From: a virus
Reading direction: 5' to 3' (one strand)
Length of the DNA stretch: 64,000 nt
Virus record (IMG/VR): IMGVR_UViG_3300040758_000047
Coordinates: 1 to 64,000 of that record
Shown here: one piece after another, positions 17,974-40,803 of the stretch
Position numbering within the stretch: the stretch's first letter is position 1
Layout of the letters: each line of letters starts with the position of its first letter
The notes under the pieces: generated by a model
What the model was told of the DNA's origin: nothing
The model's database searches: none
What the model saw: only the letters and a program-made list of their open reading frames with translations
Position numbers and translations under genes: made by a program

Positions 17974-19917
17974 TCACTGAATCCAACTGCCCATCACCAG
18001 CGGAGGGAGAGCGCCCGGCATCGTGCCATCGCTCGCGGCGTTCGCCTGGTTGATGTTAAGCGGCTGGTACCAGCTCGCCATCGTCGCGTAAATGATGTGC
18101 GGATCGCACTTCGACGGGGGGGCTACGCTGGTGATCCCCGCTGTCGCCGCTAGCGGAACATTGAACAGCGCCATGCAATTGGCTAGGTCCGCCATCGTTC
18201 CCGGCCCTCCGATCAGCGCATCGTAGTCCACCAAGCCCCGGTAAGGACCCACTCCTGCATAGCCGGTGCTCGATCCACTCGGCATATTCGACCACACCGG
18301 GCTCACGCTGGAGATATCTCCATAGGTCGCGCTCGGATGGGCTGCCGTGCCGTTGTCCCAGTGGTTGCCTTGAGCCGCCGAAGGCCAATAATTATTCGTG
18401 TTCCCCGCCGTCCAGTTGTTGCATGCCGCACCGCCCCACGTGCAGGCGGTTGCATTGTAGGTATTGCTCGTGTCCGGCTCGATACCGTAAGTCCACCCGA
18501 AGACTAGGTTGTCTTTGGCAATCACGTTGACATCGGCGTTGCCGGTAGATTCGCCGGGGGAGAGCCCTTGACTTTCGCCTGCCGCGTCGGGCAGCGATGC
18601 GATGACCGTGTTGTGAGACTCGGTGGTCCCGTTTGTGCCGCCGTTGCCGATGGAGTGAAAACAGATGTTTGTGTTGACGGGCTCGCTGCCGATTACCAGA
18701 CCCACGTTGCGCGTCACGCAGACGTTGTGGGCGAAGATGAAATTCGTCGTGTTCGCCGAGCCATTGTACTGAAGCACTCCGCCGCAGCCCTGGCACGCGT
18801 TGACGCTCCGCACGTTCGGCGTGATGCCGATGTTGTATTGGTAGATTGCAGTGCCCGTTCCGCCCGCCTGTCCCGTGCCGTCGTAAATCTCGTACTGATC
18901 GGTGTGGATGTTGGTCGTGTTCGATGGAACCAGCACGATTGAGTCGGGAGTGTTCGAATTGGAATAGTACGTGGTAGCCACGTCGCCGACCACGTTGTAT
19001 TGGGTCAAGATCGGGCTCAGCAGATTGCCGCCCCAGGAACCGGCTCCAAGCAACGGACCTTCATGGGCGCTCGAAGAAAACCACCCGTTCCCGCTGAGCG
19101 TCAGAGAAAACGCCTCATTCGGACTGGTCGCACCCTGATAGAACGTCATGGCGCTTTGCGGATTCATTGCCACGTTGTTCTCGACCAGAATGGGCTTTTC
19201 ACTGTAGTTCGTGTAGTCGCAGATCAAGGCGGTGGTCGAGTTGCATCCCGTATCGGCCGAAAAGCCGATCCAGAGGTTGTTCTCAATAAGGGTCGAACCC
19301 CCATTCCCCCAGACGCTATGGGCTTGGATCGCGTCCCAGCCGCCGCCGGAGAACACCGCGTCGATCAGCTGAAAGCCCGGGGTGCTGCCGCTGTTCCCGA
19401 AACCGACGTTGATACATTGAATGCTCGCGGCGGAAGAGCCGCAGGGCGACGCAACGATCACGTTTTGCAGATTCCAGACCGCATCGCCGTAAGATCCGCA
19501 ACTGCTATCGGCGTGAAATGCGATGGGAGACGTACCGTTCACCGAGTTGACCGTGACGTAGTTGGACGGGCTTGCAGCGCTGAAATCGAGCGTTCCGCTC
19601 TGGCAGACATCGAAGCCGAACATACTGGTGCCCCAGACCGTTCCGGTGCTTGCAAAGAGATAGTTCCGAATCCCGGCACCGTCGAGCTTCAGATCTCCTT
19701 GAACCTTGATCAGCCCCCCCACCGTCCATGTGGGAATGTTGTTAGTCACCGTATCGCCAGCAGCGATTACGACGGCATAGCCCGTCCCGTTGGGCACAAC
19801 TCCCCCAGCCCACGTTGACGTGCTGTTGGCCGGGCCGCCGCCACTGCCGTTCGACGTAACGGTGGTGACGGCGAAACTGAGCGAGCAGAAAGCGAAAATG
19901 GCAAGGATGGTCTTCAT
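17974..19917 (-). CDS. beta-helix/spike-like protein with signal peptide
   Basis: ATG at 19917 overlaps the upstream TGA (ATGA); MKTILAIFAFCSLSFA signal; TWAGGVVP..VVIAAGDTVT; Asn-ladder repeats. Confidence 0.7.
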   Translation of the reverse strand: MKTILAIFAFCSLSFAVTTVTSNGSGGGPANSTSTWAGGVVPNGTGYAVVIAAGDTVTNNIPTWTVGGLIKVQGDLKLDGAGIRNYLFASTGTVWGTSMFGFDVCQSGTLDFSAASPSNYVTVNSVNGTSPIAFHADSSCGSYGDAVWNLQNVIVASPCGSSAASIQCINVGFGNSGSTPGFQLIDAVFSGGGWDAIQAHSVWGNGGSTLIENNLWIGFSADTGCNSTTALICDYTNYSEKPILVENNVAMNPQSAMTFYQGATSPNEAFSLTLSGNGWFSSSAHEGPLLGAGSWGGNLLSPILTQYNVVGDVATTYYSNSNTPDSIVLVPSNTTNIHTDQYEIYDGTGQAGGTGTAIYQYNIGITPNVRSVNACQGCGGVLQYNGSANTTNFIFAHNVCVTRNVGLVIGSEPVNTNICFHSIGNGGTNGTTESHNTVIASLPDAAGESQGLSPGESTGNADVNVIAKDNLVFGWTYGIEPDTSNTYNATACTWGGAACNNWTAGNTNNYWPSAAQGNHWDNGTAAHPSATYGDISSVSPVWSNMPSGSSTGYAGVGPYRGLVDYDALIGGPGTMADLANCMALFNVPLAATAGITSVAPPSKCDPHIIYATMASWYQPLNINQANAASDGTMPGALPPLVMGSWIQ

Positions 19918-22900
19918 GGGTGTACGATGGTGAGCCGCGCGCTCAGCAGCGACGCGGTAGCCGAAGAACCGAGCGTATCGGAACCGTTGCGGTAGATCCT
20001 GCCGAATAGCATCGGCCCTGGCGTGCCTGCAACGCAAGCGCTGGGCAGCGTGAGGGTCTGCGGCCCAATGGCGTTCGAATAGCTCGCCGTAGTCTGCGCG
20101 GTGCTGGTGTACGACCGCGCCGAATCCCAAGCGGGATCGAGGCTCGCGCCTGTCGCGGGAACACAGGCCAATTGCAGATACCACGTGGCCGCACCGCTGG
20201 TCGCCGTGGTCAACCACTCCAGATCGAAGGTCACTGAGGTCCAGGAGTTTGAAAGCTGCGTCTGAAAGACCACCGCTGCCTGCGTTCCAGTCGCCGCGCC
20301 AAGGAAATCTACCTGGCCGAAAATGTTGTTGGTGAGTCCTGCGTGGGGGTTGAATTGCACCTGGTTCGTCCCGGCCGCGAAAGAGAAATTGCAGCCCGCC
20401 ACTCCCAGTTGCGAGAGACACTTGAACTCGCGCAGATCTGTCGTAGTGCTGACGGGGATCTCCGCACTCACGTTTGAGCCGCTCACTTGGAACGTGGCGT
20501 TTTGATAACCGGATGCCGCCGCTGGAGTCGTGCCGTTGAAGTTCGGCGACGTTACAGCGGAGCCATTCACGTTAACACTTCCGCCTCCTCCGCCTCCACC
20601 ACTTCCGCCTCCGCATACAGCCGCTCCAGCTACCCACGTGACATCCGAGCCGGTGCCCGAGGTGGAACATGCCCCAATCGTACAGTTCGAACAGTACATC
20701 TTCGAGCCGTTGCCGATCTGCCCGTTGGCGGTCAATTGGCTGATCTGCGAGTAGGTCTGCGGCTGGTAGGAGTGGACAAAGATTTTCCCTGGATTCCCCT
20801 CGCTGTTCATGTTCCAGGCAAGTGCTCCGTTCGTGATGGTGCTCGTAAGGTTGTCGAACTCGCCGATGGTGCCGATGCCGTACTCGAAGATCTTATAGCC
20901 GGTCGGCGTGGATTGGTCATCGAGAATCGTAAGATTGCGGACGTGGAACTCGGTTGTAACACCGAGAGCGAGCGCATAGTTTGGGCCGCCGTAGAATGAA
21001 CCTGCCCCAGCACCCCACTTTCTGGCCACGTCTCGCAGCGTCAGGCCGTTGACACTTACCAGGCCGCTCGATGTTTCCGACAGCCCAATGTCGTCCAGAT
21101 TCTCAAAGTAACTATTGGACACTTCGAGGCGGTTCACGTAGGCATTCACCCCATAGGACGGACCACCGGAAATCGTCACGTTGCTCAGTTGGAGGGTGGA
21201 GGTGTTCCCAATTGCAGCCCAGTCCACAATTCCTCCCATCATCGACTGCGGATTCGTGGAAAGAATTTGCACGTTCGTCATCTGAACGAACGGGTTACTT
21301 CCAAGATAAAAATTCGCGGTGCATCCCAACCACCGGCATTGAGGTCCTGCCATCCCACCGCCCCGGATAATAATATTAGAATAAGAAATGCTGGAGTTGG
21401 TCGGATTGTACGGCGCCTGACGCACCGGATCGTCCACCATGCCCTCTAGTAGTCCATTGCTCCATGCCACGTTACTAAGTTGGGTCGTGTCGATATTTTC
21501 ACCGTTCTTGACGGTGAAATTGCTGACCGTCGCGCCGCGCTCCTGATCTATCCCGCCAGGAGCGTTGTGGATTGAGATCGATTCATCACTTGAGTTGGTC
21601 ACCTGGAGATCCGAGGCGACTAGATCGACATCACCATTGGAGAGTAGACAACCCGCTACATTCAAACATTGCACACCCTGAATCAACGGGTGATCGTTGA
21701 ATTGACTAATCAGGACGTTCCCAGTGCCACCCGTGCTGCGAAAGTTCGTGACGGTCGGGTAATAGGCATCCTGGATCTGGAAGGCCAACGGAGCCTCAGA
21801 TGTGACCACCGCGCGCGTCGTCCAAACCCATAATCCATCCACCGTCCAGTTGGTAAACTTGGCCCGCGTGCCGCCTTCGAAGTAAAATCCATCGGCGTTT
21901 TGTTGATTGTCGAGCACGAAACGAGCTCCGCCAGACATCGCCCACTCCTGAGAGAATCCGGTACAGGTTGCAATGTGGAATGGAGCCGATGCTGGTGTGT
22001 AAATATGATAATCGCCATCTGGCATATAAATGCTGGTGCCTAGCGAACAAGCGGCGGCAACTGCGGCTGAATTGTCTGGAGCATATTGATAGGTCGCTCC
22101 CGCCGGGAAATCGGGTGAGAAGGACGGACTCACCGTAAGCGTCGTGTTGTTCGTCACGCTCTGGACTACGCTTCGCTGCGGGTGGTGCTGGTAGGTCCAG
22201 CCCGCACCGATCAGCACAGCGGTGTCGGCGCAGGTCCCGTTGGACACTCCCGAGGTCGCAAAGGTGAACGTCTTCGGGTAATCGCCAGTACCCACGCCGG
22301 TGATCGTGTGTGCGCCATTCATGTCGGCGCACGTCCCGGTCGAGCCGTTCACGTAGTAGACCGAATCGCCGACCGTGAACCCAGGCCATTGAAGTGACGT
22401 ACAGGTGGCCACGTTGGAAGTGATCGAGCAACTGAGGTGAGGGGTCGGCGTCACACCGCTGAGAGTGATCGAGTCGGACGCGTAAAACCCATTTGCCACG
22501 CCGCTGGTGGTGATTTCAAAGTTATAGCTTGATGTGGGATCGTTCGTGAAAAACGCTGGCTCGTTGGTGATCGAGTAGGTCCCGTTCAAGGAGCTATTGC
22601 CGGTGCCAGCGATGGTGACGTTGGCTCCGCTCGCCAGTCCATGCGGACTGTTGCAAGTGACGTACCCGACGTTCGCCGCAACCACTATGTTGCAGGCGTA
22701 CTGACCCGCGCCGACTTGCGGGTACATCGTGTGCTGCGTGGTGACGTGATAGGTGTCCACCACCTGGTAGATGGTCCAGCATTGGCCGGGGGCATTGTTG
22801 AGGGTGCCCCCGTAGATCGTCGAGCAGATAACGTCGCCTTTGCTCAACCCGGTGGTGGTCGCGCCGCCGAAGAAAGTGACAATTGAGCCGATGGACTGGA

Positions 22901-23954
22901 TGCCCAATTCGTCCGGGCCGCTGGGCTGGCTGGTGATGTAGCCCGTTCCCGAGTGAACGGTGTCGTAAACGATGATCGGCTGATTAGCCGAAAACAACGT
23001 CGTGAAGGAGGTCCCTGTTCCGGTGACGGTAGCACCGCTTGTTGCCACCGTCCCGAGTCCGGCGAGCGCCGCTTGTCCGCCGACAATTGCCGAGGTGAAA
23101 CTCGTAGGAGAGCTGGAGGTTTTGCCGCCCTGTCCGGGGCACCCCGAGGTGGTGTCGTTTCCGCTGGCGTCCAAACATAGCGGGGTGCCTGCCGACCCCG
23201 ACACTGTTCCCGCCATTTGAACTTTATTCGTATACGTTCCCTGCGAGTTACCATTGAGCAAATTGGCAAGTCCGCTCGCCGCAGTGGTACCACCCGTGCC
23301 GCCCTGGCCTACGAGTAACGGAAAACTAAGGACGAAGCACCCCGAGGTGGTGTCGTTTCCGCTGGCGTCCAAACATAGCGGGGTGCCTGCCGACCCCGAC
23401 ACTGTTCCCGCCATTTGAACTTTATTCGTATACGTTCCCTGCGAGTTACCGCTCAAGAGATTTGCGAGTCCTGTGGCGGCGGTAGTCCCCCCGGTTCCTC
23501 CCTGAGCAAGGGTTAACGGAAAACTAAATGCCCCTACTCCGGTTGAAAAGAAGGGGGTTCGCAGGGCCGTGTAAGTCACCACGGCATTGCCAGTGATTGC
23601 AATCTGGATGTACTTGTGGTTCCCGTTTCCGTAGGCGATAGGCGGGCTGCTCGATTGAGTTATCTGTGAGGCCGTCCCATAACTCGTCCATGGACCCGAA
23701 CAGGATACATCGGAGTAATTGAGGGCAACGGTCCAAGTGCCAGACCCGGAGACAACGCCAACAGAGTGGTAATAGTTGGAGCGTGAAATTGCCGACACAT
23801 TGGACACCACACCAGGGCATCCAGGGATTTCTCCCGCCCAGCTAGAACTGATTCCGTAGATGACCGTTTGCAGGACAGCCTGTTGCACGGACTGTGCGAA
23901 CAGAAGTCCCACGTGGGACGCCGCGAGGAGGGATATCAGGGCAAGTTTGCGCAT
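19914..23954 (-). CDS. tailspike/fibre-like protein with a pectin-lyase-like beta-helix and signal peptide
   Basis: AGGAG RBS; MRKLALISLLAA..LFAQ; DNSAAVAAA..IYMPDGDY beta-helix cap; GGTGGTTAA fibre repeats. Confidence 0.72.
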   Translation of the reverse strand: MRKLALISLLAASHVGLLFAQSVQQAVLQTVIYGISSSWAGEIPGCPGVVSNVSAISRSNYYHSVGVVSGSGTWTVALNYSDVSCSGPWTSYGTASQITQSSSPPIAYGNGNHKYIQIAITGNAVVTYTALRTPFFSTGVGAFSFPLTLAQGGTGGTTAATGLANLLSGNSQGTYTNKVQMAGTVSGSAGTPLCLDASGNDTTSGCFVLSFPLLVGQGGTGGTTAASGLANLLNGNSQGTYTNKVQMAGTVSGSAGTPLCLDASGNDTTSGCPGQGGKTSSSPTSFTSAIVGGQAALAGLGTVATSGATVTGTGTSFTTLFSANQPIIVYDTVHSGTGYITSQPSGPDELGIQSIGSIVTFFGGATTTGLSKGDVICSTIYGGTLNNAPGQCWTIYQVVDTYHVTTQHTMYPQVGAGQYACNIVVAANVGYVTCNSPHGLASGANVTIAGTGNSSLNGTYSITNEPAFFTNDPTSSYNFEITTSGVANGFYASDSITLSGVTPTPHLSCSITSNVATCTSLQWPGFTVGDSVYYVNGSTGTCADMNGAHTITGVGTGDYPKTFTFATSGVSNGTCADTAVLIGAGWTYQHHPQRSVVQSVTNNTTLTVSPSFSPDFPAGATYQYAPDNSAAVAAACSLGTSIYMPDGDYHIYTPASAPFHIATCTGFSQEWAMSGGARFVLDNQQNADGFYFEGGTRAKFTNWTVDGLWVWTTRAVVTSEAPLAFQIQDAYYPTVTNFRSTGGTGNVLISQFNDHPLIQGVQCLNVAGCLLSNGDVDLVASDLQVTNSSDESISIHNAPGGIDQERGATVSNFTVKNGENIDTTQLSNVAWSNGLLEGMVDDPVRQAPYNPTNSSISYSNIIIRGGGMAGPQCRWLGCTANFYLGSNPFVQMTNVQILSTNPQSMMGGIVDWAAIGNTSTLQLSNVTISGGPSYGVNAYVNRLEVSNSYFENLDDIGLSETSSGLVSVNGLTLRDVARKWGAGAGSFYGGPNYALALGVTTEFHVRNLTILDDQSTPTGYKIFEYGIGTIGEFDNLTSTITNGALAWNMNSEGNPGKIFVHSYQPQTYSQISQLTANGQIGNGSKMYCSNCTIGACSTSGTGSDVTWVAGAAVCGGGSGGGGGGGSVNVNGSAVTSPNFNGTTPAAASGYQNATFQVSGSNVSAEIPVSTTTDLREFKCLSQLGVAGCNFSFAAGTNQVQFNPHAGLTNNIFGQVDFLGAATGTQAAVVFQTQLSNSWTSVTFDLEWLTTATSGAATWYLQLACVPATGASLDPAWDSARSYTSTAQTTASYSNAIGPQTLTLPSACVAGTPGPMLFGRIYRNGSDTLGSSATASLLSARLTIVHP
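23139..23450. repeat. 114-bp identical direct repeat (23139-23252 and 23337-23450), 198-nt period
   Basis: Direct comparison; encodes GNSQGTYTNKVQMAGTVSGSAGTPLCLDASGNDTTSGC twice. Confidence 0.92.
23906..23919. promoter_or_regulatory. parS-like palindromic site (perfect)
   Basis: GTCCCACGTGGGAC. Confidence 0.75.
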
Positions 23955-24004
23955 CGGCACTCCTGTCTCACGGCGAGAGGGAAGCGCCTGAAATCAGTAT
24001 ACTT

Positions 24005-24748
24005 CTATCCTTTATCCTCTGGTAGGGGGATTTCGCCCGTGATGGCTTGGAGTGCCGAGATCGTTTCCCGATACTGCGCATGGGAGAATGCCGCTGCCTG
24101 CGCATTCTTCAGTTCATTATCCCCGCTATAGACCCGCTCGTGGATGCCCCAAAGAAGCCCTACGAGGGCTATGTCGTCCGGCAGCAGGGGAATTGTATCG
24201 TTCACCGTCGCCATCTGCGTGTTGGTCTTTCTGGTGCCCACAATGGTCAATCCCCGGTGCTGATCGGGAGTCCACACCACGCTATTTCCATCCGTGATGC
24301 TGAACGAGTCGTATTGCCCATGTGGAGGGTCTGGCTCATTCGGGCCTGGGATGTAAACAGAGTCGTAGTTTGGAGCCGGAGCCAAGCCGATAGTCTTCGG
24401 AGGCAGGTTGTCGGTGTAGTACCCAATGGGTATATCCAACTCGCGCCGCCATCCTCTTCTCGTGTTGTTCATGTCGGAAACGGTAACTTTCGGCAGCCAC
24501 CGACCCGCAAGAAAGACCTGCTCGATCGCCATAATGTCGTCAGGGACGGTGTAGGTCGGGACGCCCGCGAACACCGACATGGTCCACACGCGCTTGATAC
24601 AGCCGGTTTGTTTGAGGAAATCGAGGAGGGTCAGATTGGCAAGATCCAAGAATTGAGCTGGCGTAATGCAACCAAGAACAAGACCGTTTGGTGGATCTTC
24701 TAAATAGTCGTAGCAAAGTCGATTATAGATGTCGGTCAGCGTTGCCAT
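24005..24748 (-). CDS. head-tail adaptor-like protein
   Basis: YTVPDD..P.GYY..IGLAPAP pattern of podovirus adaptors. Confidence 0.6.
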   Translation of the reverse strand: MATLTDIYNRLCYDYLEDPPNGLVLGCITPAQFLDLANLTLLDFLKQTGCIKRVWTMSVFAGVPTYTVPDDIMAIEQVFLAGRWLPKVTVSDMNNTRRGWRRELDIPIGYYTDNLPPKTIGLAPAPNYDSVYIPGPNEPDPPHGQYDSFSITDGNSVVWTPDQHRGLTIVGTRKTNTQMATVNDTIPLLPDDIALVGLLWGIHERVYSGDNELKNAQAAAFSHAQYRETISALQAITGEIPLPEDKG

Positions 24749-24990
24749 CAGGACTCACCTGGTTCGATCTCTCGGCTTTCCTCGATCCGTTCGATCAAGT
24801 CGTCGGCCTCTTCCTCAGAACAGTCCGTCGTCTTCCCCCAGCCGTCATAGAACCCTTCGTCAGTGAACCAGTGCTCCAATCCTGTTGCATCCGTGAGATG
24901 ATTCAGAACCTTCCCCAAGGACGCGCTGACGGGAGGCACTAAGGTTAGGATTTCAATCATTCCGCTTTCCCACTGAACACGCAGCTTCAT
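24748..24990 (-). CDS. hypothetical protein
   Basis: Short acidic ORF coupled to the next gene. Confidence 0.5.
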   Translation of the reverse strand: MKLRVQWESGMIEILTLVPPVSASLGKVLNHLTDATGLEHWFTDEGFYDGWGKTTDCSEEEADDLIERIEESREIEPGES

Positions 24991-25021
24991 GCTGCTTCGC
25001 TCCATACTGGAAGTGCTTGCT

Positions 25022-25687
25022 TCACAACGAACCTTTCCCCTCAGCGGGCTCAAGTTCCTTGGCCAGGAAATAGCGAGGGAATACCACAGACTCATACAGG
25101 AGCATCGCTTTTATACCCCGCACGAATTCTTGGTACACAAGGCTGGCCGCATTGAACGGCGCTCCCACCTCCTTCAACATGATTCTTCCGCGCACATATT
25201 TGACTAGTACTTCCGCCAGTTCGTCATTCAGATCCACCACGTCTCCAGCGTTCACCAGCGGCGTTATGGGGGCCACTCCCTGGACTTCCAGCAGCCCGCC
25301 TCCATTCGCGTCCAAGGGGTGAATCCCGAAGACAGTCAATCCCAAAGGGAACCAGCGGGCTACCTGACCTTCCCATTGGTTTGAATCCACGGCCCAGTTC
25401 CGAAATCTCTGCGCGAGTTTGGCGAGGCTGTATTTTTCCAATTCCTGCTCTTCGTAGTAAACCTTCGTCGGGATCAAGATACCAGAAGGGATCGAGTAGA
25501 GCAGTTGGTTGGCAACGGTGAATCCGGGGACTGGTATGGTGTTCTGGTTCCAGCCGACCAAAAGGTTAGTGCGTCTAAGGACCTCGTTTAAGATTGACGT
25601 GACCTGCGCAGGCACATAGAGGCCAGTGTTATTGTCCAACCCGTCCCATACGAGTTGCTGAAGCGTACTGAGGGTGAACGTGGGCAC
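25022..25687 (-). CDS. head-tail adaptor-like protein (paralogue)
   Basis: TLSTL..LYSIPS..FGIHP pattern resembling 24005-24748. Confidence 0.6.
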   Translation of the reverse strand: MPTFTLSTLQQLVWDGLDNNTGLYVPAQVTSILNEVLRRTNLLVGWNQNTIPVPGFTVANQLLYSIPSGILIPTKVYYEEQELEKYSLAKLAQRFRNWAVDSNQWEGQVARWFPLGLTVFGIHPLDANGGGLLEVQGVAPITPLVNAGDVVDLNDELAEVLVKYVRGRIMLKEVGAPFNAASLVYQEFVRGIKAMLLYESVVFPRYFLAKELEPAEGKGSL

Positions 25688-25912: not shown

Positions 25913-25918
25913 GTAGGC

Positions 25919-26137: not shown

Positions 26138-26170
26138 GCTTCCTCCCTGATCTCACGGCAGTTCAGAGAG

Positions 26171-29896: not shown

Positions 29897-29899
29897 GGT

Positions 29900-30568: not shown

Positions 30569-31029
30569 TAGAAATTACCGTCCGCAACTTGAAAGACCCG
30601 TAGGCCACGAGCGCGGTACATGTCCACTACTTGCTTACGATCCTCAAAGACTCCACCGATTTCAACTCCTCCTGGCCTGTCTTTAATGAGTTGGTCGAGC
30701 AACTCCGATTTCACAACGGAATCTTCTCGGTGGTCCCCTTGCTTGCGCATGTACAGGCCGCTAAACTGGACATCGTGCTTCACAAGCCATGAAGTAGTCG
30801 CGGCCTCCACTTCGTCGCTTCGCCCCGATATGAGGACTATTCCGTATCCGGCATCCCATAGAATCCTGGCGACTCGGATCACTTCATCTATTGGCTTATC
30901 GTTGGGACAAGCCGCGAAGAAAGCGCGCCAATCTGCCGCGTTTGGTGTGTGGTCTGGCTTGCGAGTGATTAGGTGAAGGCGATGCGATAAATCCGCGAGG
31001 GTACCGTCAATGTCAAATATATAAATCAT
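30568..31029 (-). CDS. HAD phosphatase (polynucleotide 3'-phosphatase-like)
   Basis: FDIDGTLAD, SGR, FEDR..VVDM..G motifs as in the T4 PNK phosphatase domain. Confidence 0.88.
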   Translation of the reverse strand: MIYIFDIDGTLADLSHRLHLITRKPDHTPNAADWRAFFAACPNDKPIDEVIRVARILWDAGYGIVLISGRSDEVEAATTSWLVKHDVQFSGLYMRKQGDHREDSVVKSELLDQLIKDRPGGVEIGGVFEDRKQVVDMYRARGLRVFQVADGNF

Positions 31030-33233
31030 CTCAGCCATCCTCCGGGAGGCTTGGCGTGATCCCACTTCTTCTTGAAGATCTCCATGTTCCGGTCGTACCT
31101 TCGACGAAACTCTTCTTGGTCATAATACGAGCGGAAGGTTTGGCCTTGAAGGTGTTGGGCTCTAACGGGTTTAACGGCGATTGTAAACCCGGCGATTCTG
31201 GCTCGCGCCAGAAAATCGTCATCGAGAAATCCGTATCCTCCGTTGAACTCCTCGTCATAAACGTATCCGCCGACAGCCTCGTAGACGTTTCTCGGGATGC
31301 ACCACAGCGAGGTTTCCAGCTTCATCTGGCCAGTCAATACGAAGGTCTCAGGTGCCCACGAAGTAACCGTTTCTGGGACTGCCATTGTCTCCAGCCAATC
31401 GGGATCTTCGATCATAACGTCATTGCACACGATGAAAATAAACTGCCCTTGCGCTTTTTCGAAGGCTAAATTGATGGCGGTGGCCTCTCCTTTCTGATCG
31501 GCAACGATGATCTCGATCCCTTCGGGGGAGTTCTGTTTGATTAACCCAAGGCTTCGGGCCGACATCTCCCTGACTTTACCTTCTGGATCGTAATCCACAA
31601 ACACTACAGAGTACTTCGGTCTGTCGTCCACTGCTACCACCCCTTCCCCACATACTGGGTCAAATCCATACTCGATTGGGTATCGGACAATTGCCTTCAA
31701 ATGCGCTTCCCTCAGCCACGAGTCGATCACTTCAGGAGGACAGTGATGGTGCTCACCATATCCCGATGGTGCTATGGAGTCGTCTGGATTCGGATGCCGC
31801 GTGTCATTCGGAACAGTGAAGACAATCCTGCCACCGGGTTTCAGCAGTTCCTTGAACTTCAAGAGTTGCTTGGGAACCGCGTCCGTGGGAAAGTGCTCCA
31901 GAATCTCTGTCGCGGCCACAACATCGAACGAATGCCGCTGAAACGGTCGGGGGAGGTCGCGGGCGTCTGAAATGATGTCCGCTGCGTTGGGTTTACAAAG
32001 GTGCTTGTCGAACTCGTACTTGTCAAGATTAACGGCACCGATCTTCCGCATTTCTCCGCCATCGTCGCAACACCCTACATTCAGAATCTTCCCCTGACCC
32101 TTAGAGTGCTTGAGCGCAAAGATGAACTGTGCGCCGGTGTTTTTGTGATCCTCGACACCATACATCCATGTCTCGATGAAGTCGATGTACCGCTCCCAGT
32201 TGAAGGTAGATCTTGCCCACGGCATCATGTCGGCGCGGATCTGCTCTTGCAGTCCCACGTTGGACGCCAGCTTGTAAATCTCCCCAACATACCGGGCCTG
32301 CGTTAACGGATCTTCTGGATCACCAAAGATCCAGATTCCATGAAGGCAATAGTCTCCCGCTGCCCATGTTGGGGAAATGATCGGGATGGCACCCAGCGCC
32401 ATTTCTTCGATACCAGAAATAAACCCCGTTTCCGTAAACAGCGTCGGGTGAGCCGACATCCCACAGGACAATTTCTCCTGGTATAGCCGCTTCTGCCCGA
32501 TCCTGCCCAGATGAGTGACCCCCGGTTGTTTCATCTCCCGCATGGCCTCATCGTAAATCAGCTTCCACTGATTGGTCGGCGGGTTCGAGGCGATGATCTT
32601 CTCCATGTTGTCGAACCCGTAGGCAATGACCAATTCAAGGTCATGCACCCACTGACGCGCTTTACGGAAGATCTTCAACAGGGGGAGGAGTCCGCGATCA
32701 GGAGAACTGGCAAAGATGATCTTCCTTGGATTTCTCGTGGGCACGCCTTCGGCCTCGATCTCCCGTATCAAGTCGTTTCGGATGCCATTGAACCCCTGGC
32801 ACACCTTCTTGGCGTATTTGGGGTACTCTTTCATCGTGAAACTGGCATGAGTCGGGCAGAGAGCGATAAAGCGGTCTAATTTCTCCCACCGTTCCTCGGT
32901 AAGGTGGGGGTAGAACACATCTTGGCTAACCAATGACAAGACCTGTCCGGGATGCTCAAGGGGGAAATTATCGAGGACCTCTGGGCACCGAGACACGAAC
33001 CACCATCCAGGCCGGGTGTAATCGGCCTCAGAAAGGGGTAGCCAGCGCGTCCCTAGCCACTCAGGGGGCGTATCCTGCCGCAGGGGGGCGTAGACCACCA
33101 CCTCGTGCCCGCGCCTCGCCAAGCGCCTAGAAACCTCCACAACGGCGGTCTCCGAACCGCCTATTCCGGGGTCCTCAGGGTTGCGCATATCCCAAGGCTC
33201 GAAAGTGACGGGGCTGATGATCGTTACCTGCAT
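31026..33233 (-). CDS. multidomain glycosyltransferase: GT-B + SAM methyltransferase + GT2
   Basis: GIGGSET, SSPDRGL, ETGFISGIE; ILNVGC and EILEH..LKPGG; C-terminal DEEF..GF.DDDF. Confidence 0.85.
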   Translation of the reverse strand: MQVTIISPVTFEPWDMRNPEDPGIGGSETAVVEVSRRLARRGHEVVVYAPLRQDTPPEWLGTRWLPLSEADYTRPGWWFVSRCPEVLDNFPLEHPGQVLSLVSQDVFYPHLTEERWEKLDRFIALCPTHASFTMKEYPKYAKKVCQGFNGIRNDLIREIEAEGVPTRNPRKIIFASSPDRGLLPLLKIFRKARQWVHDLELVIAYGFDNMEKIIASNPPTNQWKLIYDEAMREMKQPGVTHLGRIGQKRLYQEKLSCGMSAHPTLFTETGFISGIEEMALGAIPIISPTWAAGDYCLHGIWIFGDPEDPLTQARYVGEIYKLASNVGLQEQIRADMMPWARSTFNWERYIDFIETWMYGVEDHKNTGAQFIFALKHSKGQGKILNVGCCDDGGEMRKIGAVNLDKYEFDKHLCKPNAADIISDARDLPRPFQRHSFDVVAATEILEHFPTDAVPKQLLKFKELLKPGGRIVFTVPNDTRHPNPDDSIAPSGYGEHHHCPPEVIDSWLREAHLKAIVRYPIEYGFDPVCGEGVVAVDDRPKYSVVFVDYDPEGKVREMSARSLGLIKQNSPEGIEIIVADQKGEATAINLAFEKAQGQFIFIVCNDVMIEDPDWLETMAVPETVTSWAPETFVLTGQMKLETSLWCIPRNVYEAVGGYVYDEEFNGGYGFLDDDFLARARIAGFTIAVKPVRAQHLQGQTFRSYYDQEEFRRRYDRNMEIFKKKWDHAKPPGGWLR
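32252..32265. promoter_or_regulatory. parS-like palindromic site
   Basis: GTCCCACGTTGGAC. Confidence 0.7.
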
Positions 33234-33521: not shown

Positions 33522-33563
33522 CTAATTTCCTCCTGTGTGCCCCGAGAATAAGCACTCGTGGGA

Positions 33564-33902: not shown

Positions 33903-33909
33903 GACTCTG

Positions 33910-33938
33910 AGTATAGGGATTTACGTTGGTAGAGTCAA
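33910..33938 (-). promoter_or_regulatory. sigma70-type leaderless promoter
   Basis: TTGACT-17-TATACT, 7 nt before ATG 33902. Confidence 0.65.
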
Positions 33939-34204
33939 GAGACTTTCTCCGGCATATCCCAGATCAAGCGTGTACTGCGGCAACCAGTAGCAGGCGCTTC
34001 CCGGCTCAATCACTCGATAACCTTATGGCGGATCGCGGTGGCCACCGCCGGATGCGCCGGGTGAGCAGTACGTGCTGCTGCGAATCGGTGACCAATTATT
34101 CCGCGTGTGCGTCAGCGTAACTGCCGAGGAAATTGAGGGGGACGCCCGCCTTCTTGCAATCCGCCAACCCGCCCCCGGACCCGACAGAAAAGCCTAGTTC
34201 TGTC

Positions 34205-35806
34205 TTAGTGAAACGCCGTAATCAGCATACCTAGCGATTGACTCGGATTGACAACAAAATTGAAGCTTAGTTGTGTCTGCGCTGTGTCAAAGAAGTGGAG
34301 GCCGACATCGCCATTTGTGAGTCCACTCGAATCACCGCCGCAAACCCCGGCAGTCGTGACGGAACAAGCGTTGATGGCGGTTGGGCACGGGAAATCGTCC
34401 ACTACACCGGTCGGACCTGAGACAGACAGAACAGGCCCCGTTCCCATTGTGCCAGTACCAATCAATAAATCATTGGTTTCGCCTGGAGTTATCAGTGGCA
34501 CCCCGGATATCGAGGCACCCGTGGATGGAGTGCTGCCCGCTGTCGTGTCCTTAAAGACAGATGAGGATGTGATTTGAGTACTGCCAGAGCCAGCCGTTGC
34601 TGCCGTGTCGAGAGAGGTAGCTGTGGTGCAGTAATAAGTCAGAAGGTCGTTGCCTCCGCCAGCGCTGACGGCACTAATCGTATAGGTATTGGGGTTTGAG
34701 ATCGTGACGCTGTGGTACCAGACCGTCCCACTTCCACCACCATTTGACACGCTGGAAAAATTATTACTGAGACTATCCGAGACACTTGTCACGTAAGAAG
34801 CATCGTCGGTGACAACCACCATGGTTGTATTTGTGGGACACGGAATGTTTTGCACATATGTAGCCGCCACATTAGACATATTCTGCGAGGATGCGAGCAC
34901 CTGTGCCCCAGATCCAGTCGGGGCCGACCCTCCCGAACCGGGCTTGAACGCAGCAGCCATGATAGTGAATGAATCATGGGTTGTTTGAGAGATTGTGACC
35001 GCGGGAGTAAAGCTCGTCGCCGTGGCTATGCAATACATCTCCAGATGACCGGCAAATGTATTCTCATCCAATAGAGTGCAGCCGGAGGGTATCGTGATCG
35101 CGCCCCAGGCGTTGCCCTGCTGTATCGTGTTGTTTTCGCTCTCATCATCCACTTCGATATAGACAAGATCGCCCACCACCACGGTGATCCCTGTGCCGGA
35201 AATGTTCGGAGCCGTGTTATTGGTTGGAACTACAGCAGTCTTGCAGGAACTAGTTCGCAGGGCACCCGTCGTAGCAATATTATAGAAACTTCCAAGGCCG
35301 AAATAAAAATCTCCTGTTTTATGCCCCCACGTCACGGTTACTTGTGTTGGGGTGGTGGTTGCAGGGGGGACAAAATTCATCGCGTAGTAGATGTTATGAT
35401 CTGCTCCATTTGGAATCGCAATCCCAGCGTCCTTGCAACCTGAACCGACCGTGAAAGTTGAGTTCCACGTATTCCCGCTTCCGCTGTTGCCATTGTCCGT
35501 CAGAGTTGGCGTGCAGGGTGACGCGCACGTTTGGACATATCCATTGCCGGTAGTGGGATTGTTGGGCCATTCCCCCGAGACGATTACGAGGGAGCCGGTG
35601 GTCACGCCGTTGGGCCAAGCGGTCGGGTCTAGCGTAAAAATAGGAGCGTTCATACCAGTGGTTGTTGAACGCGTGATTACATTCTTGCCGAAAAATTGGG
35701 TCAACGACGGAGTACCACCTGAAGCATGGGAGCCCATCGTCCCTGGACCCGGCATTGGAATCTGATGCCAGGACAGCGAGAGGAGAACAAGAGAAAGTAA
35801 AATCAT
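34205..35806 (-). CDS. S/T/G-rich beta-sandwich repeat protein with hydrophobic N-terminus
   Basis: MILLSLVLLSLSW; two repeated modules with GDLV/NDLLI motifs. Confidence 0.65.
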   Translation of the reverse strand: MILLSLVLLSLSWHQIPMPGPGTMGSHASGGTPSLTQFFGKNVITRSTTTGMNAPIFTLDPTAWPNGVTTGSLVIVSGEWPNNPTTGNGYVQTCASPCTPTLTDNGNSGSGNTWNSTFTVGSGCKDAGIAIPNGADHNIYYAMNFVPPATTTPTQVTVTWGHKTGDFYFGLGSFYNIATTGALRTSSCKTAVVPTNNTAPNISGTGITVVVGDLVYIEVDDESENNTIQQGNAWGAITIPSGCTLLDENTFAGHLEMYCIATATSFTPAVTISQTTHDSFTIMAAAFKPGSGGSAPTGSGAQVLASSQNMSNVAATYVQNIPCPTNTTMVVVTDDASYVTSVSDSLSNNFSSVSNGGGSGTVWYHSVTISNPNTYTISAVSAGGGNDLLTYYCTTATSLDTAATAGSGSTQITSSSVFKDTTAGSTPSTGASISGVPLITPGETNDLLIGTGTMGTGPVLSVSGPTGVVDDFPCPTAINACSVTTAGVCGGDSSGLTNGDVGLHFFDTAQTQLSFNFVVNPSQSLGMLITAFH

Positions 35807-38800
35807 CGCTCCACCCTCCAGTTTACCTCAGCCCCGCTTGCCACGGTTAAAGATCCAGTGGACCAGTTGCAGACTTGGAAGTTCACGTTGTTTGTCGTTG
35901 GATAAGCAGTGATTGCTAAGCCACCCGTAGTAGCTGGAGTGAATCCGGTGACCGCTCCCCACGCCGCATTCGGGGTGAACGAGATAACATCAGTTGAGGC
36001 CACTCCAGATGCCGAGATGGTCAAAGTAGCACAACTTGTGCTAGTAATCGCCCCTAGACTATTCAATGATCCAGTCGAGGATGATGCAGTCGTACCCGTG
36101 GCAATAGTTTGGGGAATGTTGTACGCAGTACCACCTGCAAGGGCGAGGGTAGCGGCTCCAGATACTCCTGCCGTTCCCGAGCCACTCTTGGCACCGCCCG
36201 CTCCAGTGACCAACGCGATATTCCCTCCCGCGCCACCAGAATCATTACCCGCCCCGCCTGCCCCGCCAGTGCCCGAGGTGATAGTGATTGTCCCACCAGC
36301 ACCTCCCACTGTGGAGGTGGTGCCCGAGCCGGTCGCTGCACCTCCTGTACCGCCTGCGATGGCCGGAGAACTACCAACGCCTCCAGTGTTGGTCCCAGTT
36401 GACGAGGTAGCACCGCCCGCCACGCCACTGATATTGAAGAGGGTTGTGGCTGTCGTACCGTTGCCGCCTGCGCTGGCTGGAGCTGTTCCTGCTAGTGTCA
36501 ACCCAGAACTGGAAGTAATAGGATACGTGAAGGTAGCGTCGGCGGTGGGGTTGGCCAAGCCAGATGTTGACTTATCGAGCGTGATTGCAGGTAGATCACC
36601 GGAGGCAATGGTTCCCCATACTGGCGCTGCACTGACCGTCCCGTTGCCCGTCTGGACTAGGAAGTTTTTAGTACTGGTGGTGTTGCCCGCCAGACGGGTG
36701 GGCGCTGGAGTAGAGTTCTCATAAATCAAATCTCCGAGGGTGTTCATCGGGTTAGTGAGAATGTTCGACCATGAGGTTGTGCCTGATCCATTGGTGGTGA
36801 GGGAGTACCCATTTGTGCCCCCGGTGGGCGGCAGGGTGAAAGTGTAGTTGGCTGTTGCCGCGCTAGCTAGGATTGTGTGGAAGGCGGCACTGGGGTTAGC
36901 CAGTTGGAGAGTGCCGCCCACGCTGTTGTCCACGCCCAGAGTTACAGCCGCCGTCCAGGAGGATGCGGAGGTGCTGGAAGCGTTGGGAACAGTTCCCGCC
37001 GCAGCGGAGGTGGCGTTCGTGCCACCCTGAGCGATGGTCACATTCGCTTCACTACCAACCGCGTAAGTCGAACCGGCAAAGGTCGCTATTCCAGCACTAG
37101 GTTGGCTAGTAGCATACACCAATCCACTAGCAACGATTGGACCTATTACAGTAATACTGCTAGCAGGAGCGGCAAAGTTTAGCGTAGTAGTGTTAGTCGT
37201 GCCCAACACTAACTGGTTTGTAGCAGCCGTAATAGTCTGAGCAGCAGTAAACGTATTAGCTCCCAGCGTGGCAAGAGTACTTGTAACGTTAGGAGCAGTA
37301 ACAGTCACTGCTCCAGAACTAGTGGGGAACGACAAAGTGGTCAGATTAGAACCAGCACCAAATATCAACTGGTTAGACGTAGGGGAGAAAGTCTGTGCGG
37401 TACTCCAGGTATTTGCTTGCCCGATACCAGGAATAGTTTGAGAAGTCGTTGGCATGGTAAAGGTTGCTGTACCACCCAACGCAAACGTAGCGGTATAGGC
37501 TCCTGTCTCTGTTATACCGCCGCCACTTGCGATAGACAATCCAGTAACCGTAGTAGCCGCAATCGCTCCAGTACCAATCACTGCCAACGCACCAGCGGAA
37601 CTCATTTGTACCCCGTTACCGTTGCTGTCGAACCGGACGGGGTGTGCCGCTGATCCAGACGCCGTACTAACTCGAAAGATATTACCAGTACCTGTGTTAC
37701 TGGCCGTATCCGTCAACTCAAATAAATCTATAGCAGATCCAGTCGTAGAATTGTAGGTAAGAGTGGTAGTGTCGGCCGCCATTGTAAGCGATAGATTGCC
37801 AGTTGGATTTCCAATAGAACTCCAGCCTGGACTACCTCCCGATGGACAGGTCTGGAAAGATGGGGTAGTAGTCCCATAGCTAGTTGCACCAGACATCAAA
37901 CATTGTCCATTACCTGTGGGAGTTACCCATGTTGGATTTGTTGCACCAGACATCAACGCACTATACGCGGTCGTTGCTAACCCGGCAAGTGCTGTTGGGG
38001 ATGATCCATATACAAGATATCCTGCGGTCATTGACGTTGGGTAGGCAATGGTTGAGAAGATTGGATTCGCCGCTCCCTGTCCAATGAGAGGCATATTAGA
38101 TGCCCCCTGTGCCGTGGACACCGGGGATGACCCAGAAGCTCCGGCAAGCACCACCCCGTATTGCGTGAGGAGACTTCCGCAAGATATAGCTGTCGAGGTC
38201 GATCCGTAAAGAATGCCGCCCTGCGTACAGGAGCTTGGGTGAGAAACCGTAGAGTACGCCGGAGTTGCAGATGCCCCTTGGCCGACCAACGGCATATTTA
38301 GCGCTCCTGCTGCAAGCCTTGCCGCCGCTCCCGACGAACCACCAACAAATAAGTCCCCGGTCGTCGTTAAGGGGTAATTCGTGAGTGATGCGATGGCTGG
38401 AACGTAGGAAGCCGTAAGCGCTGTCCCATTCCATACTCCAGAGCTAATCGTACCAACCGATGTCAAGCTTGATCCAGTGCCACAAATCCCAGTCTGCGGG
38501 TTTAATAGTTCCCAGTAAGTTCCATCATAAGTGGCAATGGCGACAGCGGTTGTCAATATATCGTTGGCAACCAAAGCGCTCTGCCCGCACTTGGTAATCG
38601 TCGGAGAGCTAAGGCCGTTGACCGTTAAGGTGGGAGCGGCGGCGGTATTAGCTGCCGTAGCCTTCCACATCACCGTTAATCCAGCGACCATTAATGTAGC
38701 TGGCGGAGCCAACGTCACGGTTTGCGCCTGAGCGGTCCCGCCACCCGCAGCGTACTCTGTTGAATCCAAGTCAGCCCAGCTTTTATATGAACCAACCGCT

Positions 38801-39876
38801 GAAGATCCGCCACTCGCCAACATCTGGTTAGCCGTGCCCGCCGTGCCTGATTGCACTGCCCCAGTCGAAGTCGTGCCTCCGAACAGAGGCGCATAGGCCG
38901 TCAGGGATGTCGCTCCCGTACCTCCACCAGCGACAAGAGCCGTACCAAAAGAAGGGGTCGTTGAAGACCCGCCAGAGACTAAAGGAACTCCGCTGGTTCC
39001 GCTGGTAGCAATCCAAGTAGGGTTCGTCGCTCCAGCCCCAAGAACCCCATAGGCCGTAGTGGCTAAGTTGGCGAGTGCTGTAGCGCTCGACCCATAAACG
39101 AGTCCCCCTGCGGTCATTGCAGTTGGATACGCGATCGAAGAAAAGACCGGATTCGCCGCGCCTTGGCCTATTAGCGGCATGTTAGATGCCCCCTGTGCAC
39201 TAGCTGTGGGAGATGACCCAGCACCACCACCAAATAACACCCCGTATTGAGTTAATGCCGCTGAACTAGCCCAGGAAGATGCACTGCTGAAATAAGGGAT
39301 ACCTCCGTTGTTGCCTGCTACAGTCAACGCAGGAGTGGTCGTTGCTGAACCAACCGAGATCAATCCGCCCGTAAAGCTTACACTAGTGACGGTCCCGTTT
39401 ATTGCCGAGGTCGTTAATAGATCCCCGTTCACATCATGAAATTGCCAGCCCGCTGCCGTGCTCATAATCGCCGAGGTGTTCGCAGCCATCGTCATTGGCG
39501 CTAGAATCTCGTATGCGGCGGTTGTGCCATTTACGTAGAGCGTGACAGATGACACTGAAGAACCACTCGCATTTACCAACTCGATTGAAGTTATATAGGT
39601 GTTCACGGTGGATGTGCCCGTATAAAGAGCGCTCCCGGTAGATGTCGGCAGTTGGCCTTGGGCTAACACGCCGGGAGTTGTTATGTATGGGGCCGACGTG
39701 CTCACAGTGGTGCCAAAGATGGTGTAGGTGACCGCACTTGCGGTCCCCGCAGATCCATAGATTGTGCCGCTAGGTGCCAGCGTGAATAGTTCATTGTATG
39801 GCACGCCGACCGTCGAGATTGGCTGTTGCGCCAACGCTGGCAAGCACAATACGAGGATAGGCAGGAACTTCCTCAT
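35803..39876 (-). CDS. long S/T/G/A-rich fibre-like protein with signal peptide
   Basis: MRKFLPILVLCLPALA-QQ; fibre motifs GTVTSV, GGTGATSLT, TNPMNTLGDLIY; internal repeats. Confidence 0.72.
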   Translation of the reverse strand: MRKFLPILVLCLPALAQQPISTVGVPYNELFTLAPSGTIYGSAGTASAVTYTIFGTTVSTSAPYITTPGVLAQGQLPTSTGSALYTGTSTVNTYITSIELVNASGSSVSSVTLYVNGTTAAYEILAPMTMAANTSAIMSTAAGWQFHDVNGDLLTTSAINGTVTSVSFTGGLISVGSATTTPALTVAGNNGGIPYFSSASSWASSAALTQYGVLFGGGAGSSPTASAQGASNMPLIGQGAANPVFSSIAYPTAMTAGGLVYGSSATALANLATTAYGVLGAGATNPTWIATSGTSGVPLVSGGSSTTPSFGTALVAGGGTGATSLTAYAPLFGGTTSTGAVQSGTAGTANQMLASGGSSAVGSYKSWADLDSTEYAAGGGTAQAQTVTLAPPATLMVAGLTVMWKATAANTAAAPTLTVNGLSSPTITKCGQSALVANDILTTAVAIATYDGTYWELLNPQTGICGTGSSLTSVGTISSGVWNGTALTASYVPAIASLTNYPLTTTGDLFVGGSSGAAARLAAGALNMPLVGQGASATPAYSTVSHPSSCTQGGILYGSTSTAISCGSLLTQYGVVLAGASGSSPVSTAQGASNMPLIGQGAANPIFSTIAYPTSMTAGYLVYGSSPTALAGLATTAYSALMSGATNPTWVTPTGNGQCLMSGATSYGTTTPSFQTCPSGGSPGWSSIGNPTGNLSLTMAADTTTLTYNSTTGSAIDLFELTDTASNTGTGNIFRVSTASGSAAHPVRFDSNGNGVQMSSAGALAVIGTGAIAATTVTGLSIASGGGITETGAYTATFALGGTATFTMPTTSQTIPGIGQANTWSTAQTFSPTSNQLIFGAGSNLTTLSFPTSSGAVTVTAPNVTSTLATLGANTFTAAQTITAATNQLVLGTTNTTTLNFAAPASSITVIGPIVASGLVYATSQPSAGIATFAGSTYAVGSEANVTIAQGGTNATSAAAGTVPNASSTSASSWTAAVTLGVDNSVGGTLQLANPSAAFHTILASAATANYTFTLPPTGGTNGYSLTTNGSGTTSWSNILTNPMNTLGDLIYENSTPAPTRLAGNTTSTKNFLVQTGNGTVSAAPVWGTIASGDLPAITLDKSTSGLANPTADATFTYPITSSSGLTLAGTAPASAGGNGTTATTLFNISGVAGGATSSTGTNTGGVGSSPAIAGGTGGAATGSGTTSTVGGAGGTITITSGTGGAGGAGNDSGGAGGNIALVTGAGGAKSGSGTAGVSGAATLALAGGTAYNIPQTIATGTTASSSTGSLNSLGAITSTSCATLTISASGVASTDVISFTPNAAWGAVTGFTPATTGGLAITAYPTTNNVNFQVCNWSTGSLTVASGAEVNWRVER

Positions 39877-39877
39877 A

Positions 39878-40492
39878 TTACTGGTAGTACGCCGTCAAAG
39901 ACATTGTAGTGCAACCAGTTGTGGTTGACCCAGCATCCGCAGTAGCCGCCGCAAAGCCAATGCCGCTAGTAAAATTCTCCAGCGCAAGCTGTCCAGGCGC
40001 AATGGTAAGCCCAAGTCCAGCCTGTACCATATAGGAATCCACTACTCCCGTTCCAATGCTCGGCACGCCAGAGTTGTTATAAAACTGAAGGAAACACGTC
40101 ACGGTGCCATAGTTGCTTGCGGAAAATCCGTAGAGGTTCCCGGCACTGCCCTTAATGTTTAAGGCCGTTCCCGTGTAGGTATGGTGATACATAGTGAAAG
40201 CATACGTGGCCGAGGTGCTGGGAGTAGTCGGTGAAACCGACAGGGCATTCGTCACGTAGGCATTCACCCCGATGACATTACCTGACGGGGCCGACCCATA
40301 AGCGGTAGGAGTGGCTGTAATTGAAGAGCCTCCTTCTTGTGATAAATTGACGCTCACGGGAATCATACTGGAGATGCCTTGCACGGTGATTACTCCAGGC
40401 GCAGCAGTGCCCGCCGTCCCAGATCCAGTTACGGGTTGCTGCGCCAAGGAGACACCGGCACAGAGAGTGAGTGCCGCGAATAATTTTCTCAT
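39878..40492 (-). CDS. exported decoration-like protein
   Basis: Signal MRKLFAALTLCAGVSLA-QQ; IKGSAGNLYG..FLQFYN jelly-roll-like motif. Confidence 0.65.
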   Translation of the reverse strand: MRKLFAALTLCAGVSLAQQPVTGSGTAGTAAPGVITVQGISSMIPVSVNLSQEGGSSITATPTAYGSAPSGNVIGVNAYVTNALSVSPTTPSTSATYAFTMYHHTYTGTALNIKGSAGNLYGFSASNYGTVTCFLQFYNNSGVPSIGTGVVDSYMVQAGLGLTIAPGQLALENFTSGIGFAAATADAGSTTTGCTTMSLTAYYQ

Positions 40493-40803
40493 TTCTGTTT
40501 CCTTTCAATCCATTCGAAGTCGTCGTTAATGTCCCAGTGCTTTTCATCGGCGCGGCAGAGTTCACGTACTTGTTTTCGCCAAACCTCAATCTTTTCGTTA
40601 AGCTCCTTCAGTTCTTTTTCGGCTTCCTTTTGGTCTATCTGGGCTTGGAGGATTTGATTCCTGTCCGTCATGACACGCTGGAGGGCTACGTAAGCCTTCC
40701 TAGTAAGTTGTAGCACTTCCACTTTTTGCGCGTCCGTCACGGGGGCTGGCTTCTCATCGGAGAATGCCACCAGCGAGGCGAGCAGGAGGATAAGCGTTCT
40801 CAT
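40489..40803 (-). CDS. exported coiled-coil protein
   Basis: Signal MRTLILLLASLVAFS; coiled coil; resembles 33564-33902 in architecture. Confidence 0.65.
   Translation of the reverse strand: MRTLILLLASLVAFSDEKPAPVTDAQKVEVLQLTRKAYVALQRVMTDRNQILQAQIDQKEAEKELKELNEKIEVWRKQVRELCRADEKHWDINDDFEWIERKQK

Follow-up and report, generated by a model that had tools for sequence, protein, structure and literature searches.

Predicted Sec-type signal peptides on fibre- and spike-like late proteins of a short-tailed, lytic-type soil phage

The DNA analysed in this study (the window) comprised positions 1 to 64,000, the first 64 kb, of the 96,503-bp phage contig IMGVR_UViG_3300040758_000047, the whole genome of which contained 117 genes. 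The phage was described as a short-tailed, lytic-type soil phage, and its late genes were present on the minus strand. Tailed-phage structural proteins assemble wholly in the cytoplasm, normally without signal peptides. The initial annotation had nevertheless assigned Sec-type signal peptides to seven late open reading frames (ORFs), P0001 to P0007, and had proposed that the proteins fold with disulfides in the periplasm and attach to virions at or after lysis, or are displayed on the lysogen surface. All seven ORFs (7/7) were found on the minus strand with starts in agreement with that annotation (Table 1). In our study, we found that the leader-bearing proteins of this phage are very probably exported by Sec and cleaved by signal peptidase I (SPase I), judging from the conservation and composition of their sequences.

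Leader-bearing genes of the late region

The P0002 and P0001 genes were found between adaptor 2 and the tail hub, and the genes from P0007 to P0003 formed a cluster between the head genes and p392; their description as virion-module genes holds by gene position only. The start codons were supported because the starts of P0001, P0004 and P0006 overlapped the stop of the upstream gene as ATGA, and because GGAG-type ribosome sites preceded P0002 and P0004 (GGAGG at P0004). In GC content the leader-gene region did not stand out from the remainder of the genome, save that values were modestly higher over P0001/P0002.

Table 1. Coordinates of the late genes of the window, listed by position
Feature	Position	Strand	Length	Remarks
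Tail hub or nozzle-like protein	12904-17952	minus	1682 aa	leaderless; conserved full-length in relatives; weakly similar to Tunturi_1 gp31
P0001	17974-19917	minus	647 aa	predicted signal peptide, then right-handed beta-helix
P0002	19914-23954	minus	1346 aa	predicted signal peptide ending LFA↓QS; 28 Cys
Adaptor 2	24005-24748	minus		SU10-type head-to-tail adaptor, paralogue of adaptor 1; leaderless; PF24175, E 4e-10
Adaptor 1	25022-25687	minus		SU10-type head-to-tail adaptor, paralogue of adaptor 2; leaderless; PF24175, E 9e-8
p392	26764-27942	minus	392 aa	conserved backbone protein upstream of the adaptors; leaderless
GT4-methyltransferase-GT2 fusion, PNKP-type HAD phosphatase and two GT2 genes	29195-33233	minus	735 aa (fusion)	predicted cytoplasmic; directly downstream of P0003
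P0003	33564-33902	minus	112 aa	predicted signal peptide ending AFA↓QS, then coiled coil with CxxC
P0004	34205-35806	minus	533 aa	weak/possible signal; start ATGA-coupled to P0005 stop
P0005	35803-39876	minus	1357 aa	predicted signal peptide ending ALA↓QQ, then mosaic fibre
P0006	39878-40492	minus	204 aa	predicted signal peptide ending SLA↓QQ, then small beta-sandwich
P0007	40489-40803	minus	104 aa	predicted signal peptide or signal anchor, then coiled coil; first gene of accessory block
Major capsid protein	43047-44003	minus		PHROGs; query for related IMG/VR loci
Portal	47659-49527	minus		
Large terminase	52895-55141	minus		

Leaders were called by a strict rule-based scan and by inspection by eye, the Sec/SPase I criteria being a basic n-region, an uncharged h-region of ~8-16 residues and small residues at -3/-1, within 15-35 residues. 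The N-termini of P0001, P0002, P0003, P0005, P0006 and P0007 contained a basic n-region, an uncharged hydrophobic stretch of at least 9 residues, a small -3/-1 site and mostly Gln at +1, and the assignment of Sec-type leaders was upheld for these six. The N-terminus of P0004, already called the weakest of the set in the initial annotation, was devoid of K/R and of a good cleavage site and was classed as a weak or possible signal only. The scan matched 10 of the 117 genes of the genome as against 5 of 329 shadow ORFs (1.5%; binomial p 1.3e-5). P0001 was added by eye as an eleventh leader, and ~12 leader-bearing genes were counted in all, with five further ones outside the window, at genome positions 70077, 86153, 90193, 90662 and 91122. 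The same rules, when applied to lambda, picked Lom, Bor, Rz and RexB, which are two secreted and two inner-membrane proteins. The lipobox [LVI][ASTVI][GAS]C was absent from the leaders of P0001, P0005 and P0006, in which the Cys was preceded by FAF, LVL and LTL, respectively.

P0002 is predicted to contain a conserved jelly-roll N-domain (~residues 25-135), behind which the chain continues with two fibre repeats and a spike-like body and closes with a C-terminal domain. At 23906-23919, inside the signal-peptide codons of P0002, the genome-wide palindrome GTCCCACGTGGGAC was present without mismatch, where it yielded an odd 'SHVG' in the hydrophobic core and put an in-frame GTG inside the leader. 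The window contained 16 near-copies of this palindrome against 0.34 expected, and the P0002 orthologue of locus L018 was without the site.

The earlier mention of beta-helices was confirmed for P0001, for which structure prediction gave a right-handed beta-helix of the tailspike or polysaccharide lyase family 6 (PL6) type (predicted template modelling score, pTM, 0.83). Its top fold matches were tailspike receptor-binding domains (7eea, Z 20.7; Phi92 gp150; phi29 gp12), with tailspikes at Z 15-21, together with PL6 lyases and AlgG. Fibre repeats were likewise confirmed for P0005, as modules common to canonical tail fibres: 47 homologues had modules in common with it, which were 40-400 residues long (most ~60-200) and 35-83% identical. 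Leaders were present on about half of these homologues, and others began with classical leaderless tail-fibre N-termini. P0003 and P0007 were found to be weak paralogues of each other, and the ESM Atlas clusters closest to P0006 and P0004 were 85-100% viral (87-100% for P0006, viral only for P0004) and belonged to no Pfam family. Searches of the seven proteins against Pfam and PHROGs gave only two marginal PHROG rows, for P0007 (E ~0.006-0.008), and no informative match to P0001, P0002, P0005 or the hub came from a PDB sequence search. No tblastn match to P0002 or P0005 was found in 50,697 phage records, and pattern scans of IMG/VR and metagenomes with the same two proteins gave no relatives.

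In the same 50,697 records, the closest large terminase was that of the Tunturiibacter phages Tunturi_1 and Tunturi_2 (25% identity), which are podoviruses of Acidobacteriota (PMC11924767). A P0005 fibre module was also found on an Acidobacteriaceae bog metagenome-assembled genome (MAG). Because of these two observations, the host of the phage is probably a member of the Acidobacteriota.

Conservation of the leaders and pairing of cysteines

The major capsid protein retrieved 68 related IMG/VR loci, from which four complete relatives (G001, G003, G004 and G005) were compared with the phage itself (G000). The backbone of terminase, portal, scaffold, capsid, p392, adaptors, hub, GNAT, p206 and ejection proteins was conserved in the relatives. 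Each complete relative contained 6-11 leader matches, several of its largest proteins included, and in some of these proteins domains of the Pel9A-like, Beta_helix or ConA-like lectin type were present.

The survey of related phages proposed in the initial annotation found the leader kept in all ten phages with an orthologue of the P0002 N-domain (10/10), where the N-domains were 31-76% identical and the leader sequences were unrelated; the A↓Q cleavage site was invariant among five aligned orthologues. Relatives of P0001 numbered 19 among 1.8 billion representatives, and nearly all full-length ones began with a leader. Between P0001 and P0054, the mature chain was identical at 616 of 632 positions (97.5%), as against only 7 of 16 in the leader. 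The number of Cys in the mature chains also differed in parity: across the five complete genomes of the clade, 31 leader-bearing proteins had an even number and 9 an odd number, compared with 226 and 225 among the other proteins (Fisher p 8e-4). In Tunturi_1, gp12, gp13 and gp17 had even totals, and gp14 was even once the leader Cys was excluded.

The leaders are judged to be functional because their character was kept in the orthologues, because they drift faster than the mature chain, and because of the Cys parity. Periplasmic export and folding with disulfides was thus well supported by leader character retained despite drift, by even Cys numbers and by the Gln at +1, as in the Tunturi_1 leaders. 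The statement that the large proteins contain many Cys pairs survived in part: the bias to even numbers was present, and the Cys content was not raised (1.54 vs 1.45%, p 0.24), so that an overall Cys enrichment was rejected and 'paired Cys' is better wording than 'many Cys'.

A Gln at +1 after the predicted cleavage was found in 20 of the 44 clade leader matches (G000, G001 and G003-G005), a count inflated by the preference of the scan for cleavage before Gln where several sites fit; in Tunturi_1 it was found in 4 of 5. The Q-rule has been published as specific to Bacteroidetes (Bochtler 2018, PMC5837995), and it may hold in Terriglobia too.

Attachment to particles and competing explanations

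The leader-bearing proteins, that is a tailspike-like protein, a depolymerase-like beta-helix, a mosaic fibre and small partners, may be host-surface gear of the phage made as Sec precursors, with the P0002 type docking on particles; we regard this reading as evenly poised between right and wrong. In such a route, host SecYEG would carry the precursors across the inner membrane, SPase I would cut after A-x-A, mostly exposing Gln, and the mature chains would fold and form disulfides in the periplasm. These steps, up to periplasmic folding, are suggested by several independent features of the sequences. The P0002-type protein might then join the adaptor/hub of DNA-filled particles via its jelly-roll N-domain, either at lysis or once holin lesions merge cytoplasm and periplasm under an intact outer membrane. 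Holin lesions are large enough to merge both compartments with the outer membrane still holding, and could thus offer a workable docking window. P0001 and the P0007-P0004 block would ride on P0002 or the hub, or would act free, in the periplasm or secreted, on host polysaccharide; they can be read equally well as extra appendages and as free periplasmic or secreted enzymes and fibres. To our knowledge, no published account places any part of tail morphogenesis of Caudoviricetes in the periplasm.

Attachment to the virion after export was found plausible for P0002 because a conserved N-domain was combined with a variable body, because the adaptor-hub slot held leaderless fibres in Tunturi_3, and because a precedent from tandem mass spectrometry (MS/MS) was present in Cellulophaga phages. 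The P0002-type gene kept its N-domain on bodies of 723-1548 aa; in the phage itself, G003 and G005 it lay within the p392-adaptor-hub block, and it held this placement across phages with ~40% identical capsid protein. The near absence of the N-domain from 301 Acidobacteriaceae genomes (1 weak match) and the virion-type folds and modules of P0001 and P0005 also favour a virion role. Docking itself is a tentative proposal, which we rate slightly below an even prospect.

One of the closest known systems is Tunturi_1 (PP887698; PMC11924767), a podovirus cultured on a member of the Acidobacteriota, in which the hub, GNAT and ejection proteins form the same backbone and five consecutive late proteins carry leaders, namely gp12, gp13, gp14 (annotated tail spike), gp16 and gp17 (annotated virion structural protein), three of which were at least 900 aa long. 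Sequence similarity between the two phages was limited to one short fibre module and a weak match of the hub, and the P0002 N-domain was not found in Tunturi_1. The paper on Tunturi_1 never mentions signal peptides and reports no proteomics (PMC11924767). Tunturi_3 shares both its backbone and its host strain with Tunturi_1. Leaders as a general trait of acidobacterial phages were rejected, since the tail and fibre genes checked in Tunturi_3 and Tunturi_4 were without them.

In Cellulophaga phages, Sec-type leaders with Gln at +1 were found on gp085-087 of the podovirus phi18:3 (NC_021794) and gp091-094 of the siphovirus phi10:1 (NC_021802). These proteins were annotated as structural or tail proteins, and their GenBank notes read 'annotation based on experimental MS/MS proteomics analysis'; by these record annotations, leader-bearing fibre-type proteins were detected in purified virions of cultured phages. 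As in the phage studied here, the leaders were on fibre-like or pectate-lyase-like late proteins adjoining tail genes, and in phi18:3 a leaderless protein of ~1600 aa was followed by large virion structural proteins. The Cellulophaga phages differed in host phylum (Bacteroidota), and phi18:3 had no BLAST similarity to the phage. A split route may operate in the clade, and in parallel in some Bacteroidota phages, in which heads, adaptor and hub would be made in the cytoplasm, and fibres and spikes exported by Sec, cut by SPase I and disulfide-bonded in the periplasm would dock on finished particles only after holin lesions or lysis had joined the two compartments; this extension is offered with more reserve than docking of P0002 itself.

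The canonical tailspikes and fibres (P22, HK620, the CBA120 tailspike proteins, Pam1, Phi92 gp150 and SU10 fibres) shared with the leader-bearing proteins the beta-helix fold, fibre modules arranged as a mosaic, the combination of a conserved N-domain and variable distal parts seen in P0002, and a gene slot by adaptor and hub. They differed in having no leader, in cytoplasmic assembly and in a particle-binding domain of 100-230 residues ahead of the helix. Sec leaders on fibre- or tailspike-like proteins acting outside the cytoplasm are also known from the MAT fibres of Bdellovibrio (Caulton et al. 2024, PMC10769870) and from Pantoea WceF (PMC7949094), which are cellular genes with no virion, in contrast to the genes studied here, in the late operon of a lytic-type phage. 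A P0005 module was also found in giant leader-bearing proteins of an Oligoflexia MAG: at 4115-18448 of L009, three adjacent giant proteins (2366, 437 and 2000 aa) shared it, the first with a leader, and their appearance is that of MAT-type fibres encoded by a cellular relative of Bdellovibrio. Porphyromonas phage genes with Q-rule leaders follow the leader style of the host, including Gln at +1 (Matrishin 2023, PMC10367356), and differ in being of unknown function; they were interpreted as modifiers of the envelope, and no tail parts were named among them. In the literature, we found no paper on export signals of tail fibres or periplasmic maturation of tail parts, and none on the leaders of Cellulophaga phages or on how such proteins reach the particle.

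Several observations weigh against docking on particles. P0001 had no N-terminal docking domain after its leader in the predicted model, in which the helix began at ~residue 25, compared with the 100-230 residues that precede it in the matched tailspike chains. The fold matches of the P0002 N-domain were borderline (XepA/YomS-like jelly roll, Z 8.5) and included no known virion-docking domain. In relatives with an 88% identical capsid protein the block 34205-40932 was missing, and L019-L021 retained only a P0003 homologue; P0001 and the P0007-P0004 block appear to be accessory, the latter because of this absence from close relatives. In L022 the hub followed directly after adaptor 2. The large leader-bearing genes shifted position among the complete relatives, lying ~40 kb from the capsid gene in G001, and in G004 and G005 large unassigned leaderless proteins adjoined the hub and could be the real fibres. 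Docking after export would meet dilution at lysis, the MS detection in purified Cellulophaga virions may reflect co-purified envelope material, and the leader calls came from rules and inspection by eye and not from a trained predictor.

In a different explanation, the proteins would be exported and never reach the particle. They would then be free periplasmic or secreted depolymerases, lectin-like fibres and partners that remodel the exopolysaccharide or lipopolysaccharide (LPS) of the infected cell, derived from tail fibres in which the virion anchor was swapped for a leader, and would set progeny free from the matrix, rid debris of receptors or keep superinfecting phages out. We consider this possible but rather doubtful. 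The bare beta-helix of P0001 right behind its leader resembles periplasmic or secreted PL6 lyases and AlgG, and a protein of a relative contained a Pel9A-like helix at residues 17-92. The P0001 gene was also found to move, together with the last ~330 nt of P0002, as a 2.3-kb module (17972-20243) that was 91% nucleotide-identical in two metagenome contigs, L002 (4700-6968) and L003 (1340-3608), with otherwise unrelated flanks; one of them contained a serine recombinase nearby, and L002 contained five leader-bearing genes in a row. The variable presence of the P0007-P0004 block, the shifting gene positions, the split of the P0005 module homologues between leaders and canonical anchor N-termini, the adjoining cytoplasmic sugar-modifying genes and the cellular precedents WceF (PMC7949094) and MAT fibres (PMC10769870) all agree with free enzymes. 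On the other side, the conserved N-domain and variable body of P0002 within the adaptor-hub block are the signature of an anchored virion fibre, the families were virus-only, and, according to the records, MS detected proteins with leaders in virions of Cellulophaga phages. Free enzymes would also leave the phage without an evident receptor-binding protein other than the conserved hub, apart from which no leaderless fibre-like protein was found in the genome. No route across the outer membrane was seen by eye in the translations, since the leaders and C-termini of the seven proteins showed no PEP-CTERM, autotransporter barrel or lipobox.

That the N-termini are not cleaved signals at all, and are instead uncleaved anchors, handles for cytoplasmic assembly or aggregation, or products of wrong start codons, is improbable. 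It would suit the rule-based calls, the missing basic n-region of P0004, P0007 as a possible i-spanin-like signal anchor, and the GTG within the palindromic site of the P0002 leader, from which a shorter isoform is conceivable. It conflicts with starts fixed by ATGA coupling and ribosome sites, with the absence of any Met soon after the leaders in the seven translations, with the invariant A-x-A↓Q of the five aligned P0002 orthologues, with the even-Cys bias, which points to an oxidising compartment, and with leaders in the same style as those of secreted cellular proteins encoded on an Acidobacteriaceae contig.

Display on the lysogen surface, by morons like lambda Lom/Bor expressed from a prophage, is very unlikely and found no support: a sigma-70-like promoter ahead of P0003, the position of lambda lom, a leader-bearing outer-membrane gene, within the lambda tail-fibre region, and the variable presence of the block 34205-40932, the sole moron-like trait in the test, are outweighed by ATGA coupling within a late operon, by GC like the surroundings except over P0001/P0002, by proteins built of fibre modules and far larger than known morons, by an N-domain of P0002 nearly absent from the host family (1 weak match in 301 Acidobacteriaceae genomes), and by the lack of any integrase noticed in the 96.5-kb genome, most genes outside the structural arm of which were not scanned.

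Adjoining features and biological meaning

The promoter match upstream of P0003 (TTGACT, 17 nt, TATACT; 10/12) was found at 33910-33938 on the minus strand, in a gap of 300 nt that was the sole sizeable gap of the cluster. The glycosyltransferase/methyltransferase/HAD-phosphatase cluster was kept in relatives without the fibre block; candidate targets of its products are a virion protein, an exported fibre and host polysaccharide. Glycosylation of the leader-bearing proteins was dropped as a candidate, since the sequons N-x-S/T and D-S/T-[AILVMT] showed no enrichment beyond composition, except for a marginal one in P0002 (z 2.0-2.5). A 115-aa ORF was present between the two adaptor paralogues (24005-25687), and the hub was followed in the late-gene order by GNAT and then by three large Q/P-rich proteins, which were taken to be ejection proteins.

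At 41417-42461, the overlapping ORFs 41435-42133 and 41913-42461 compete; tblastx to relatives showed conservation of 41417-41836 at ~70%, and the 3' part of ORF 41435-42133 probably represents a real gene whose start lies later in the frame. Outside the window, at genome positions 84337-86908 (L005 4337-6908), a 612-aa protein with a papain-like (C1) peptidase domain overlapped the end of a 251-aa leader-bearing gene, and downstream of it, at 83248-84152, small membrane proteins had the look of a lysis cassette, with no family match. The contig start (first 100 bases at least) was repeated at 77641, and the last 60 nt encoded the same peptide as the start of ORF 47-1669; the assembly may thus be circular or terminally redundant, with an internal repeat in addition.

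Whether the leader-bearing proteins reach the particle can be tested directly, since both Tunturi_1 and its host, Tunturiibacter psychrotolerans X5P2, are available in culture. If periplasmic folding applies to fibres and spikes in common phages of soils and marine waters, receptor-binding proteins stabilised by disulfides, and possibly capped by pyroglutamate, become possible, which would matter for persistence in acid soils. The infectivity of the progeny would then hinge on the Sec, SPase I and Dsb systems of the host, a new point of host control or defence. Annotation pipelines in which a signal peptide counts against a virion role would classify receptor-binding proteins wrongly, host-range prediction would be affected, and recombinant expression of depolymerases would need removal of the leader. 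If the proteins stay free instead, they would form a large secreted toolkit against host exopolysaccharide, with relevance for carbon turnover in peat and tundra soils.

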